A DNA stretch of 64,000 bases from Promethearchaeota archaeon Loki_b32 (GTDB lineage: Archaea; Asgardarchaeota; Lokiarchaeia; Sigyniarchaeales; SOKP01). This document shows, one piece after another, positions 25,941-55,454 of the stretch. Under the pieces are notes generated by a model. That model searched no databases. It was not told where the DNA came from and saw only the letters and a list, made by a program, of their open reading frames with translations. The stretch's first letter is position 1, and the number at the start of each line of letters is the position of its first letter. The stretch is from the NCBI GenBank assembly GCA_005223125.1, contig NJBH01000007.1, positions 64,001 to 128,000 on the forward strand, read 5' to 3'. A program made the translations under genes and the position numbers.

Positions 25941-26060
25941 ATGGTTCCTCTTTCAACACCACACACTCGTGCTATTGAGAGTGGCGGGCTGAATAGGTCG
26001 CCCGAAAGCTCCCTACGTACACCCCCACCTCACTAACCCCGTCTTATACGGGTGCACTCG

Positions 26061-26228
26061 TCTCGCATACTCAGTTCGCGTCACCGCGCCCTGATCTCGT
26101 TAACTCGCAAATAATCCATTTAGATTATGATGTATTCTTATGATTAGCTTCTGACGATCACAGGTGTGTCTTACTAACCAACACCAACCTAAATACACCA
26201 CTCACTCATTAACACTCGCTATACGAGA
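26061..26228 (-). other. Supersized expansion segment ES39 (helix 98), about 168 nt
   Basis: Closing stem UCUCGUAUA/UAUGCGAGA at the helix 98 position. Confidence 0.85.
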
Positions 26229-26417
26229 TTGGCTGACTATTTTCGGGTCCGACTTCGTGCTTAGATGCTTTCAGCACTTATCCGTTGGCGCGTGGCTGCC
26301 CGGCAATACCTTGTCAGATAACCGGTACACTAGAGGCGCCGGCAAAATGTTCCTCTCGTACTGATTTTCCCTTACCCTCAGTCAACCTACAAACCCAGTA
26401 GATAGAATCCGACCTGT

Positions 26418-26576
<159 letters not shown>

Positions 26577-26608
26577 TTAATGGGCGTACAGCCCCACCCT
26601 TGGGAGTT

Positions 26609-26638
26609 ATGCGCCACAGCTCCTCTGCGGAACTGCGT
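26609..26638 (-). other. 30-nt insertion in helix 91, probable relaxed-BHB intron
   Basis: GCAC-AU|A hairpin GCGC-AU|A, with one A·C mismatch in the central helix. Confidence 0.6.
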
Positions 26639-27237
26639 ATGTGCGCTCCCAGGATAGGAAGAGCCGACATCGAGGAAGCAAGCCACGAGGTCGATAGGAA
26701 CTCTTACTCGTGACAACTCTGTTACCCCCGGGGTAATTTTTCTATCACCTTAACCAGCCACACGAGCTCAGTTAAGGATCGCTAGACCAGGCGTTAGCCT
26801 CAGGATTCCTTGGTGATCAGAATCCAGTCAGACCAGCTTTTGCTCTTAAACTCTTCAGCGGATTCCTGACCCGCCTGAGCTGATCATTGGTTACTCTAGA
26901 TATTGTTTCTAGAGTGAGCCGCCCCAGCCAAACTGCCCACCTGCGGGTGTTCGATGCGATTTGCATCGTTAGTGATACCAGAGGGGAAAGCCGGTGTTCC
27001 AATGATGCTCCGCCGTGACCGAAATCGCGGCATCTACGCTCCCGACTACACTCTGTATCCAATCCAGGACCACAACAACAGGCTGCAGTAAAACTCCACG
27101 GGGTCTTCTCGTCCCACTGGGTTTCTCCGGACCGTTCGCCGGAGTGTAATTTCAATCGTCAGAAGGCTGGGACAATGGGGAGAACGTTGGACCATTCATG
27201 CACGTCTGAACTTACCAGACAAGGCATTTGGCTACCT

Positions 27238-27267
27238 TACTCTCGAGAGGTCGAGACGACGTATCGT
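27238..27267 (-). other. 30-nt BHB intron in 23S after ~A1927
   Basis: CUCU-UA|A / AGAG-UA|A; removal restores CUCUCUUAAGGUAGC. Confidence 0.9.
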
Positions 27268-28592
27268 TAAGAGAGTTATAGTTACTCCCGGCGTTTAGCA
27301 GGACTTACTCGGGTTGTAACCCGGATTTATCAGACTGCCACTGGCCAGGTTTCAGCCACTGTAAACAAGTTTTCACTCTATCAGTGACCTATGTTTTTAT
27401 TAAACAGTCGTCCCCCCCTAGTTATTGCAACTTGTGAGCCCCTTCACACTGCCGAAGCTGCGTGAAGAAGTTCGCAAGCAAGCCTTCTCCCAAAGTTACG
27501 GCTCTAATTTGTCGATTTCCCTAGCCTCCTTTACACGAATACGCCTTAGGCTACTCACCTAGGGGCACCTGTGTCGGTTCTGGGTACGATCACGGCATTT
27601 CTTACTTTTGCCTTTTTAATAGGTCCTGGGCTCGGCGGAACCTTCCACAATTGGATGGCTATTCATGGTTTAAGCTGGGTCTAAGTTTTACACTATTCAC
27701 CAGCTTTATGCATTTAAATAGGGAGATATTCGACGGCCCTATTCCACCTACCCTGAACCGTCAGCATAAAGTCGTGCGTCACCGCTATTCGTAGTGCCGT
27801 GGTACAGGAATATAAACCTGTTTCCCTTTCGCGCATACCAGTTAAGGGTACGCTTAGGATCGACTAACTCTTCGCTGACGACGCATTGCAAAGAAACCCT
27901 TGCCCTTTCGGCGGATGGGATTCTAACCCATCTATGCTTTTACTATTACCAGGATGTTCACTCCGGGCAGATCCACAGGAACTCACGCACCTGCTTCTAC
28001 TCTACCCGGACGCTCCCCTACCGGATCACGGGGTTCTTCCGCCCGTGCCCTTGGGTCTCGGTGGCAGATTTAAGCCCCGTCCATTTTCGGGGCTATATTT
28101 CTCGGCAAATGAGTTGTTACACACTCGTTAGGGAATGGCTACTTCTATACCTATCCTTTTGCTGTTTTAGAAATATAACGCCCTTCTGTTTAACACTTAA
28201 CCTGCACTTAGGGACCTTAACCCAAGTCTAGGTTGTTCCCTTCTCGGCGATGGACTTTACGCCCACCAACCCGTTTCCCAGAGTCTGCAGTGCCAGCAGT
28301 TTCGGAGTTTAAGAGCGGGGAGAGGAATTTCTTCCCCATACCACGCAATTAGTGCTCTACGCCACTGGCTGCCTCGTCTGAGACTTGGCTGATACCAACT
28401 TCGGGGAGAACCAGCTATCACCGATCTAGATTAGCCTTTTGCTCCTATTCCCAGTTCATCCAAGCGAATTGCACGTCAGCACTGGTGCAGACCTCCATCG
28501 CCCTTTCGAACGACTTCATCTTGACCAGGAATAGATCGACCGGCTTCGGGTATTATAGCAGAGACTTTTGGCCCTTTGAGACCATTCTCCTG

Positions 28593-28681
28593 GCCTAATT
28601 CCTTAGAAGGATTAGCTAAACGTTGTTAGAATGGCATAACCACTCGTTAACGAGTAGGTCTTCCTAATGTGATAATTAGGT
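28593..28681 (-). other. Enlarged expansion segment ES9, about 90 nt
   Basis: GCCTAATT/AATTAGGT closing stem around an AT-richer insert with an ACTCGTTAACGAGT hairpin. Confidence 0.75.
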
Positions 28682-29429
28682 TGCAAGAATATCGGTTTCC
28701 CTATGCCTACGCGCCGCAAGACGCTTAAGCTTGCCACTACTATAAACTCCCTGGCCAATGATTCCAGACTGATGATGCGACCCTAGTCCTCTGTATTCTG
28801 ATATTCTGTCACCAGAACTCATTCATGCAGAATCTGTCCTTTCAGGCCGCATCCTTAATAAGCTATTTGGTTTCAAGCACTTTTCACAGCCCTTCCGGGT
28901 TACTTTTCATCTTTTGTTCACACTACTACTACGCTATCGGTCTTGGGACATATTTAGATTTGCCAGCGTGTATCTGGCACATTCGTACGAGAAAACCATC
29001 CCGCACTACTCAGGGACTCTTGCAGCAGCCATCTAGATTACGATTACGCGGCTGTCACGCTCTATGGCTCAGCATTCCAGAGGTATTCATCTTCTCTAGA
29101 GAGGCCGTACAAGGCCCATACACCACATTTCCCATAGGTTTCCCTTGGGATTCGGTTTGATCTGTTCCGCTTTCGCTCGCCGTTACTTACGGAATCACTA
29201 TTGTTTTCTTTTCCTCCTGGTACTAAAATGTTTTACTTCCCAGGGTTCCCCTTCCCTGACGGGAATCTTGCGGATTATTAAGCCGCAAGCGGATGTCCTA
29301 TTCGAGAATCTCGGGGTCAGCGTCTTCATGCGACTAACCCGAGCTTATCGCAGCTTGTCACGCTCTTCATCGGTGCCCAAGCCAAGATATTCACCAAATA
29401 GCGGAGGCGTATTGGCGTTTAGTTGAGGA

Positions 29430-53792: not shown

Positions 53793-54149
53793 ATGAAGAT
53801 CTTAGCTGAAGACAAGATAAAAATTGAGGATGTTACAGTTTATTTGAATCTGTTTAGGTTACATAAGAGTTTTCTTTTGTTAATTTCTGATCACCCCGAT
53901 ATGGGGATAGGTAACGTAACATTAGGGAGTCCACCAATTATTGAAGGTATTAAATCGCCAACAGCATCTTATAACCTATTTGGCATGAGAACAAAATTAT
54001 TAAGTACAATTATTGCAGAAAGAGCTTCAAATAACCTAAAAGCACCAGTATTACTCCTCTTATTTTTAAAATGTAAAAAGAATGATGAAGAGATAATAAA
54101 ACCTATAGTTAATTTTCTGAATAAAGTCCTTAAAGATATATCAGAATAA
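53793..54149 (+). CDS. PAC4-like proteasome assembly chaperone family protein
   Basis: FLLLISD..GIGNVTLGSP..LFG..LS.IIAER..PVLLLL pattern. Confidence 0.55.
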   Translation: MKILAEDKIKIEDVTVYLNLFRLHKSFLLLISDHPDMGIGNVTLGSPPIIEGIKSPTASYNLFGMRTKLLSTIIAERASNNLKAPVLLLLFLKCKKNDEEIIKPIVNFLNKVLKDISE

Positions 54150-54158
54150 TAATTAAAA

Positions 54159-54320
54159 TGCAGGGAGTGGGATTCGAACCCACGAAGAGCTATCTCACCG
54201 GATATCTCATTAATTATTACGTTAATCAACGGCTAACATAATAATCTGATCTTGAGTTCGGTTATTGAAAATCAATTTCCAATAAAGTCCGGCACCGTTG
54301 ACCAACTTGGTTATCCCTGC
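54159..54320 (-). tRNA. tRNA-Leu(CAA) with introns at 32/33 (54256-54286) and 37/38 (54204-54250)
   Basis: GCAGGGA/UCCCUGC-A acceptor, long variable arm, GGGUUCGAAUCCC; spliced anticodon arm CCGGA-CUCAAGA-UCCGG. Confidence 0.9.
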
Positions 54321-54432
54321 TTGAAAAATTTTGAAATTTTTTATTTAATCTTAAACGAATTTACTTAATTAATTTTTTTAAAAAATATAATAGAAAATCT
54401 AATTATAAAAAGATCTAATCTTTCTTTAAAAT

Positions 54433-54746: not shown

Positions 54747-55454
54747 TTAATCTGAAATAACAGTGCAAGTAATATCTTTTTCTCCTTTCCAATATTTTTC
54801 AAATTCTTTTAGATCTTTACCAGACATAACACTGATTTTGATCTTACTTCTTTTTAATATTTGCAATGAGACCGCGTCAAATATACGGTATTCTCCTGCT
54901 GCTGCTTGATTATCTCCGGAGGAATTAAGAACTATTTCTTGTAAACCTGCATAATTTAAGGTTTTTATCAATTTAGCATCCCCAAATTTCTTTGGATCTT
55001 TATCATATATCCCTTCAACATCTGTAAGAATCACAAGTTCATCTGCTTGTATGAATTCTGCTACTTCGAGAGCTACAGAGGTTGTAGACTGCCCTGGTTG
55101 TAAACCTCCCATGACAACTATCTTACCAAAAAGTAATGCTAATGAAAGTTCTTCTATTGTTTTTGGAACTAAAGGATAGGAAAAATCTTGAAAAGAAGTA
55201 ATTAATAATTTTGAATTTATACGAGACAGATCTATACCAAATGTATCACATAATGCTTCATTTCCATGAAATGATCTCACTGCATCTATATATACTCTTG
55301 CAATTCTTCCCCCGCCACATACAATAACATGAGTTCCAGAACGATTTACATTTTTAAAGATTTGACAGAATTTTTGAATCTTTTCTTTATCTAATTCATT
55401 ATCCTTAGTAAATAGTAATGACCCGCCAATTTTTATTACACTTTTTCCTTTCAT
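54747..55454 (-). CDS. pyrH: UMP kinase
   Basis: KIGGS, GGGRIAR.YI, PGQST, TDVEGIYDKDP. Confidence 0.93.
   Translation of the reverse strand: MKGKSVIKIGGSLLFTKDNELDKEKIQKFCQIFKNVNRSGTHVIVCGGGRIARVYIDAVRSFHGNEALCDTFGIDLSRINSKLLITSFQDFSYPLVPKTIEELSLALLFGKIVVMGGLQPGQSTTSVALEVAEFIQADELVILTDVEGIYDKDPKKFGDAKLIKTLNYAGLQEIVLNSSGDNQAAAGEYRIFDAVSLQILKRSKIKISVMSGKDLKEFEKYWKGEKDITCTVISD

Follow-up and report, generated by a model that had tools for sequence, protein, structure and literature searches.

On the minus strand of the analysed window, i.e. 64,000 nt of the Lokiarchaeia genome Loki_b32, we identified a tRNA-Leu(CAA) gene, the three exons of which join to an 84-nt class II cloverleaf and the full precursor of which, spanning both introns, comprises 162 nt (Table 1). 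The initial annotation had placed the anticodon of a tRNA-Leu on a 5-nt micro-exon between a 31-nt intron at 32/33 and a 47-nt intron at 37/38; all coordinates hold, both intron positions are right to the base, and for the doubly spliced sequence ARAGORN reports a clean 84-nt tRNA-Leu(caa). If either insert is removed singly, the intron mode of ARAGORN recovers the remaining insert at the length given here. We regard the gene model of a tRNA-Leu(CAA) with two BHB introns as practically certain. The unspliced gene is miscalled as 'tRNA-Stop(tta)' by ARAGORN in intron mode, and it is missed by ARAGORN without intron mode as well as by Rfam at the gathering threshold. As standard finders miss or mistype the gene, genomes of this family appear to lack a tRNA-Leu(CAA). 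The promoter scan used a sigma-70 model, archaeal promoters lying outside its coverage; in public RNA data the contig of one run covered a small share of the region, ending at the tRNA 3' end and showing no splice joints. A convergent 118-aa ORF without NCBIfam match (window 53793-54149, plus strand) ends at a distance of 9 nt from the 3' end of the tRNA, and the UMP kinase gene pyrH (54747-55454, minus strand) lies upstream of the tRNA. The window also contains an archaeal 23S rRNA (25955-29418, minus strand), whose match of 3464 nt to a model of 2987 positions includes ~480 extra nt, either expansion segments or introns.

Table 1. Features of the tRNA-Leu(CAA) gene and its surroundings; coordinates refer to the window.
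Feature	Coordinates	Strand	Remarks
Exon 1 (positions 1-32), 34 nt, ending at C32	54287..54320	-	near-invariant in orthologues
Intron 1, 31 nt, at 32/33; hairpin of 10 bp, then CCGA-AC	54256..54286	-	precisely absent in 8 orthologues
Micro-exon UCAAG, 5 nt (U33, anticodon CAA, G37)	54251..54255	-	invariant in parsed orthologues, partly by search design
Intron 2, 47 nt, at the canonical 37/38 site; CUCA/UGAG helix with the bulges AGA and AUA	54204..54250	-	kept in each of the 57 distinct orthologues parsed
Exon 3 (positions 38-73), with long variable arm and discriminator A73; CCA not encoded	54159..54203	-	
BHB1 central helix, exon strand CCGG (27-30)	54289..54292	-	sequence
BHB1 central helix, intron strand CCGA (3/4 pairs in Loki_b32)	54258..54261	-	sequence; compensatory change in L173/L174
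BHB2 central helix, intron strand UGAG	54206..54209	-	sequence
Intron-2 element complementary to the D arm; its core CCGUUGA (54232-54226) forms the 7-nt loop at the hairpin apex	54221..54233	-	
D-loop and D-stem 3' strand (positions 15-25)	54294..54306	-	predicted partner of the intron-2 element
Candidate TATA-like stretch, AT-rich, 21-35 nt upstream of the tRNA	54341..54355	-	sequence only; surroundings very AT-rich

In the first motif, BHB1, the exon bases C27-G30 are paired with the end of intron 1, accompanied by ACU bulges and a 10-bp intron helix. The CCGG/CCGA helix with two ACU bulges, as initially annotated, is present, but in Loki_b32 it has only three central pairs out of four (C27.A being a mismatch) and almost no exon-side outer helix, which makes it a relaxed motif. 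The central helix is complete in 39 of the 49 orthologues carrying intron 1, and L173/L174 show a compensatory change from C28-G to U28-A. The second motif, BHB2, consists of CUCA/UGAG with all four Watson-Crick pairs and the bulges AGA and AUA. The 32/33 junction is set by the BHB register, a one-base slide in either direction leaving zero central pairs by inspection, and this placement is supported by the orthologues, in which the first base of intron 1 varies between U, A and C and the last between C, U and A. The 3' bulge of BHB1 occupies bases required by the BHB2 helix and folding yields a joint probability of 0; the complete motifs are therefore mutually exclusive, so that splicing has to proceed one intron at a time.

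The Loki_b32 genome encodes two EndA subunits and RtcB. EndA alpha aligns with crenarchaeal EndA structures and contains the specific loop and the catalytic residues Y, H and K; the second subunit is devoid of the catalytic His. Judged from these sequences the enzyme would have the (alpha-beta)2 form, matching the one with L1 loop reported for Asgard archaea (PMC5829648). A rough intron-aware census suggests about 40 tRNA genes, most of them interrupted and at least 10 with several introns. The intron lengths are uniform, 29 of 39 being 29-31 nt long at many different positions, which may reflect a common insertion mechanism or a length constraint. Within this genome (95.5% complete) the gene is the sole tRNA-Leu(CAA) candidate, the other Leu anticodons having their own genes (UAG (two), CAG, GAG and UAA), and UUG codons occur at a rate of 11.6 per 1000. 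The census also brought up a tRNA-Val(UAC) with three 30-nt introns, one of them at 33/34 on the palindromic helix CGCG (G000:C4:20616-20778, plus strand), and a probable tRNA-Ile(UAU) with ~107 nt of inserts in a rough parse (G000:C57:25989-26170, plus strand). Two different tRNA-Leu(UAG) genes (G000:C58:45-129 and C48:141435-141551) and two tRNA-Ala(UGC) genes (G000:C68:23146-23218 and C48:148418-148519), one member of each pair being interrupted, may be genuine or may stem from contamination (4.6%).

Comparing Loki tRNA-Leu(CAA) genes, as the initial annotation had proposed, we found 57 distinct orthologues among relatives: 40 carry introns 1 and 2, 9 an additional intron at 59/60 and 8 intron 2 only, these counts being biased by one genome scan that demanded both introns. 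Intron 1 is present at 32/33 in 49/57 and precisely absent from this very position in 8/57, L130 being counted among the latter, and intron 2 is kept at 37/38 in 57/57. Among the orthologues parsed we found none without intron 2, and the form with intron 1 only was never seen; a phylum-wide pattern search returned mostly chance matches and missed gaps >30 nt. Identity to the Loki_b32 gene amounts to 97% in the exons, with intron 1 reaching 65% and intron 2 73%. Conserved exons together with drifting introns, and the eight orthologues with exon 1 joined directly to UCAAG, argue against a chance architecture. L024 and L028/L128 are devoid of intron 1, fall into separate supported clades and adjoin intron-bearing genes 96-98% alike; three genes from other families likewise lack it. 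The simplest reading of these sequences, drawn from a short gene tree of 132 columns in which L130 is still labelled as bearing intron 1, would be one gain of intron 1 in this family and at least two precise losses, which could have occurred by slippage between the two CCGGAC copies or by conversion from a half-spliced intermediate. The third intron, 29-30 nt long and located in the T-loop at 59/60 (L009, L010, L013, L025, L026, L027, L077, L095 and L139), occurs in several separate clades, which suggests repeated gain or loss; the exon end at this site is palindromic as well (UUCGAA). Of the named records that contain this gene, most bear the label Promethearchaeota or Promethearchaeia. Seven records (L036, L049, L056, L068, L077, L081 and L088) are titled Hermod-, Thor-, Hod- or Odinarchaeota, and as their genes match those of this genus completely or almost so, the labels given by the submitters seem unreliable.

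To what extent the splicing is ordered we estimated with ViennaRNA, acceptor and T stems being fixed and pseudoknots, tertiary structure, modifications and enzyme binding being ignored. In the Loki_b32 precursor the BHB1 helix is predicted with a probability of 0.71 and BHB2 with 0.13; BHB2 rises to 0.68 after removal of intron 1, and BHB1 falls to 0 after removal of intron 2 because the anticodon stem closes. The initial annotation had stated that CUCA/UGAG can form before or after removal of intron 1; the mimicking intron end alone permits either, and the predicted probabilities of 0.13 before versus 0.68 after qualify this. In the median of 45 orthologues, forming the motif in the precursor costs 1.3 kcal/mol for BHB1 and 4.2 kcal/mol for BHB2, compared to 1.9 kcal/mol for BHB2 once intron 1 is gone and 5.0 kcal/mol for BHB1 once intron 2 is gone. 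For Loki_b32 itself the two costs are about equal in the precursor (1.8 for BHB1, 1.5 for BHB2), and amount to 0.3 for BHB2 after the first step and to 5.3 kcal/mol for BHB1 if intron 2 leaves first. BHB1 is cheaper before than after removal of intron 2 in 45/45 orthologues, which are related and do not represent 45 independent tests. The overlap of the motifs had been taken to imply ordered splicing: the motifs do exclude each other and splicing is sequential, but a fixed order is not forced, and an obligatory nested order is at odds with BHB2 being predicted at 0.13 before intron 1 is removed. The model calculations make it likely that removal of intron 1 followed by intron 2 is preferred, not obligatory. 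Removal of intron 2 first would be possible in Loki_b32, leaving a closed anticodon stem predicted to disfavour BHB1.

Other readings of the locus have to be weighed against this. That the gene contains just one intron of 78 nt and a stop-reading UUA anticodon, or represents a pseudogene or an assembly artefact, appears extremely improbable: the one-intron reading can draw on the ARAGORN parse as tRNA-Stop(tta) and on a one-intron profile parse with an 8-nt GAG loop, but its anticodon bases vary among the orthologues, position 37 would be U, the same architecture occurs in dozens of independent assemblies and the gene is the only Leu(CAA) candidate of the genome. Both one-intron parses (UUA and GAG) were rejected. 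More weight has to be given to the resemblance between the end of intron 1 and the end of exon 1, described initially as GAAC mimicking GGAC. This resemblance is real as sequence, but it is mostly a by-product for which a special explanation is unneeded. As CCGG is self-complementary, its BHB partner reads CCGG too and the intron end must resemble the exon, which fixes the bases from -6 to -3; the A at -2 is a generic feature, being found in 26 of the 31 other well-formed introns of the genome. L173/L174 have CUGG in the exon and CUAG at the intron end, by which BHB1 keeps 4/4 pairs and the mimic gains a mismatch, a single event that, as far as sequences tell, points to selection on BHB pairing and not on copying. 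A similar look-alike is present at the 33/34 intron of the Loki_b32 tRNA-Val (CGCG), without copied bulge bases. The sole feature of the mimic left over is C at -1 (36/49 orthologues, a pyrimidine in 48/49, C in just 1/31 of the other Loki_b32 introns), which may be inherited from a duplication-type origin or be mildly selected. According to an alternative, selection maintains the intron-1 end as a substitute for C27-C32, which would allow intron 2 to go first and make both orders productive: the pyrimidine at -1 can pair with the G of UGAG, its replacement by A in silico lifts the cost of BHB2 from 4.2 to 7.7 kcal/mol, and intron 1 of most orthologues ends in CCGGAC or CUGGAC, i.e. in a full stand-in for the 5' strand of the anticodon stem. 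However, C at -1 may be plain inheritance from one origin, the remaining mimic positions are forced or generic, L173/L174 retain BHB1 and damage the mimic, and the BHB1 helix probability drops to ~0 in 43/45 orthologues once intron 2 is removed, all of which makes selected copying with a free order quite unlikely compared to the preferred removal of intron 1 before intron 2.

The order might additionally be influenced by intron 2 itself. Its apical loop CCGUUGA is complementary to D-arm positions 20-24 as part of a 13-bp complementarity in Loki_b32 (dinucleotide-shuffle p ~0.0003), and it is the best conserved part of the intron-2 interior (90-100% per column versus ~45-88% elsewhere). CCGUUG is found in 46 of 51 distinct introns, an unconditioned count; the pair table for covariation comprises the genes with the element present only. 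Even where intron 2 is down to 27 nt (L138 and L142), CCGUUGA is retained next to the BHB strand. In these two genes an apparent deletion between two short repeats removed the 3' arm of the intron-2 hairpin. In a nested fold, the predicted duplex with the D arm and the anticodon stem would be incompatible. A tentative possibility is that the loop, by pairing with the D arm of the precursor, works as a folding switch that keeps anticodon stem and BHB2 from forming as long as intron 1 is present. In line with this, the median duplex probability in the orthologues is 0.91, and scrambling the loop in silico raises the cost of BHB1 from 1.3 to 3.3 kcal/mol (higher in 40/42 genes) and lowers the preference for BHB1 first from 35/42 to 22/42 genes. 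In Loki_b32 itself, however, the duplex probability is just 0.08; two-sided covariation is absent, with U20-to-C being uncompensated in 3 genes, and the element is broken in L009/L010, though both introns are kept, and occurs also in genes lacking intron 1, among them L030 of another family. It may therefore predate intron 1 or serve otherwise. We consider it doubtful that the loop is an antisense element selected as a cis-acting folding switch steering the precursor first into the conformation for splicing of intron 1; if true, a protein-spliced tRNA would here have a chaperone for its splicing order encoded in an intron. Presence of the element with or without intron 1 and retention of intron 2 in 57/57 orthologues would also suit a role in modification unrelated to splicing order, the loop serving as a guide, docking a trans guide RNA or opening the D arm for an enzyme. 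There are precedents in the intron-dependent C34 modification of tRNA-Leu(CAA) in eukaryotes (PMC4090602) and in intron-paired or intron-encoded C/D guides in archaea (PMC2584109). This is unlikely, given that a box D is absent directly after the antisense stretch, that CUGA at the intron 5' end is unconserved, that we did not find a convincing C/D guide with the complement in the Loki_b32 genome, and that the canonical introns of more distant Leu(CAA) genes are different ones devoid of the element. Intron 2 lacks C/D guide architecture, and we rejected its interpretation as a box C/D or kink-turn element. Intron-exon complementarity is not general in the other introns of Loki_b32 (4 at p<0.05, uncorrected, in ~40 tests). 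The anticodon-arm intron of a tRNA-Met(CAU) (G000:C56:3912-4049, plus strand) and the 5' end of the tRNA it interrupts are complementary over ~12 bp (p ~0.03, uncorrected).

The tRNA-Pro(GGG) of M. thermautotrophicus, with introns at 32/33 and 37/38, has the same 5-nt exon layout. The literature on 'nested' pre-tRNAs describes two to three BHB introns, the canonical one at 37/38 plus non-canonical ones, in Thermoproteales and Methanothermobacter (PMC3978253, PMC4033280, PMC8450103), located so close to each other that one leaves before the next motif forms (PMC3978253, PMC8450103). The Loki_b32 gene resembles these in combining the canonical 37/38 intron with a non-canonical BHB intron, one of which must go first, and differs from them by the D-arm-complementary loop of intron 2; as BHB2 can in principle form early via the palindromic intron end, its order is energetic and not strictly nested. 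The order predicted here, with the 37/38 intron last, was found by RT-PCR for multi-intron tRNAs of Cyanidioschyzon merolae, where it follows the free energy of the motifs (Soma 2013, PMC3728597); the algal enzyme is eukaryotic and the motifs fold independently, whereas those of Loki_b32 share nucleotides. For Asgard archaea, many interrupted tRNAs with several introns per gene, an (alpha-beta)2 EndA and repeated gains and losses were described (Valentin-Alvarado 2024, PMC11291895; Goswami 2026, bioRxiv 10.64898/2026.10.13.758758), including a tRNA-Leu(CAA) of Atabeyarchaeia listed with three introns. Both studies centre on Atabeyarchaeia and Jordarchaeia/Freyarchaeia, in contrast to the lokiarchaeial gene reported here, and the text of the preprint is silent on Loki/Promethearchaeota and on splicing order. 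The intron of archaeal pre-tRNA-Trp encodes a box C/D guide targeting positions 34 and 39 (PMC2584109). Like this intron, intron 2 of the Loki_b32 gene has a stretch complementary to an exon of its own tRNA, but it has neither C/D and C'/D' boxes nor a D box at guide distance, and its target would be the D arm. The micro-exon and sequential splicing are thus already known, multi-intron, sequentially spliced archaeal tRNAs having been published. What may be new is the conserved D-arm-complementary loop of intron 2 and its modelled bias on the splicing order; a literature search did not find such a tRNA-intron loop described, which is weak evidence of novelty.

Taken as a whole, we assign a probability of roughly 0.75 to the reading that the locus is a functional archaeal tRNA-Leu(CAA) gene, present as a single copy, whose two BHB introns are spliced by proteins in a preferred order of intron 1 followed by intron 2. 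According to this model, the 162-nt precursor would be transcribed and its exon bases CCGG (27-30) would pair with the end of intron 1, as predicted by folding, resulting in a relaxed BHB with two ACU bulges. As expected from known pathways and the enzymes encoded, the (alpha-beta)2 EndA would cut this motif and RtcB would join C32 to U33. The anticodon stem is then predicted to close and CUCA/UGAG to form a canonical BHB from which intron 2 is excised; end trimming and CCA addition would presumably result in the mature UUG-reading tRNA. The gene provides a compact test case for splicing order, as its natural variants differ in the number of introns (one, two or three), in whether the mimic is perfect or broken and in whether the intron-2 loop is present. 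That intron 1 was lost precisely and repeatedly, intron 2 being kept, bears on how tRNA introns are gained and lost.
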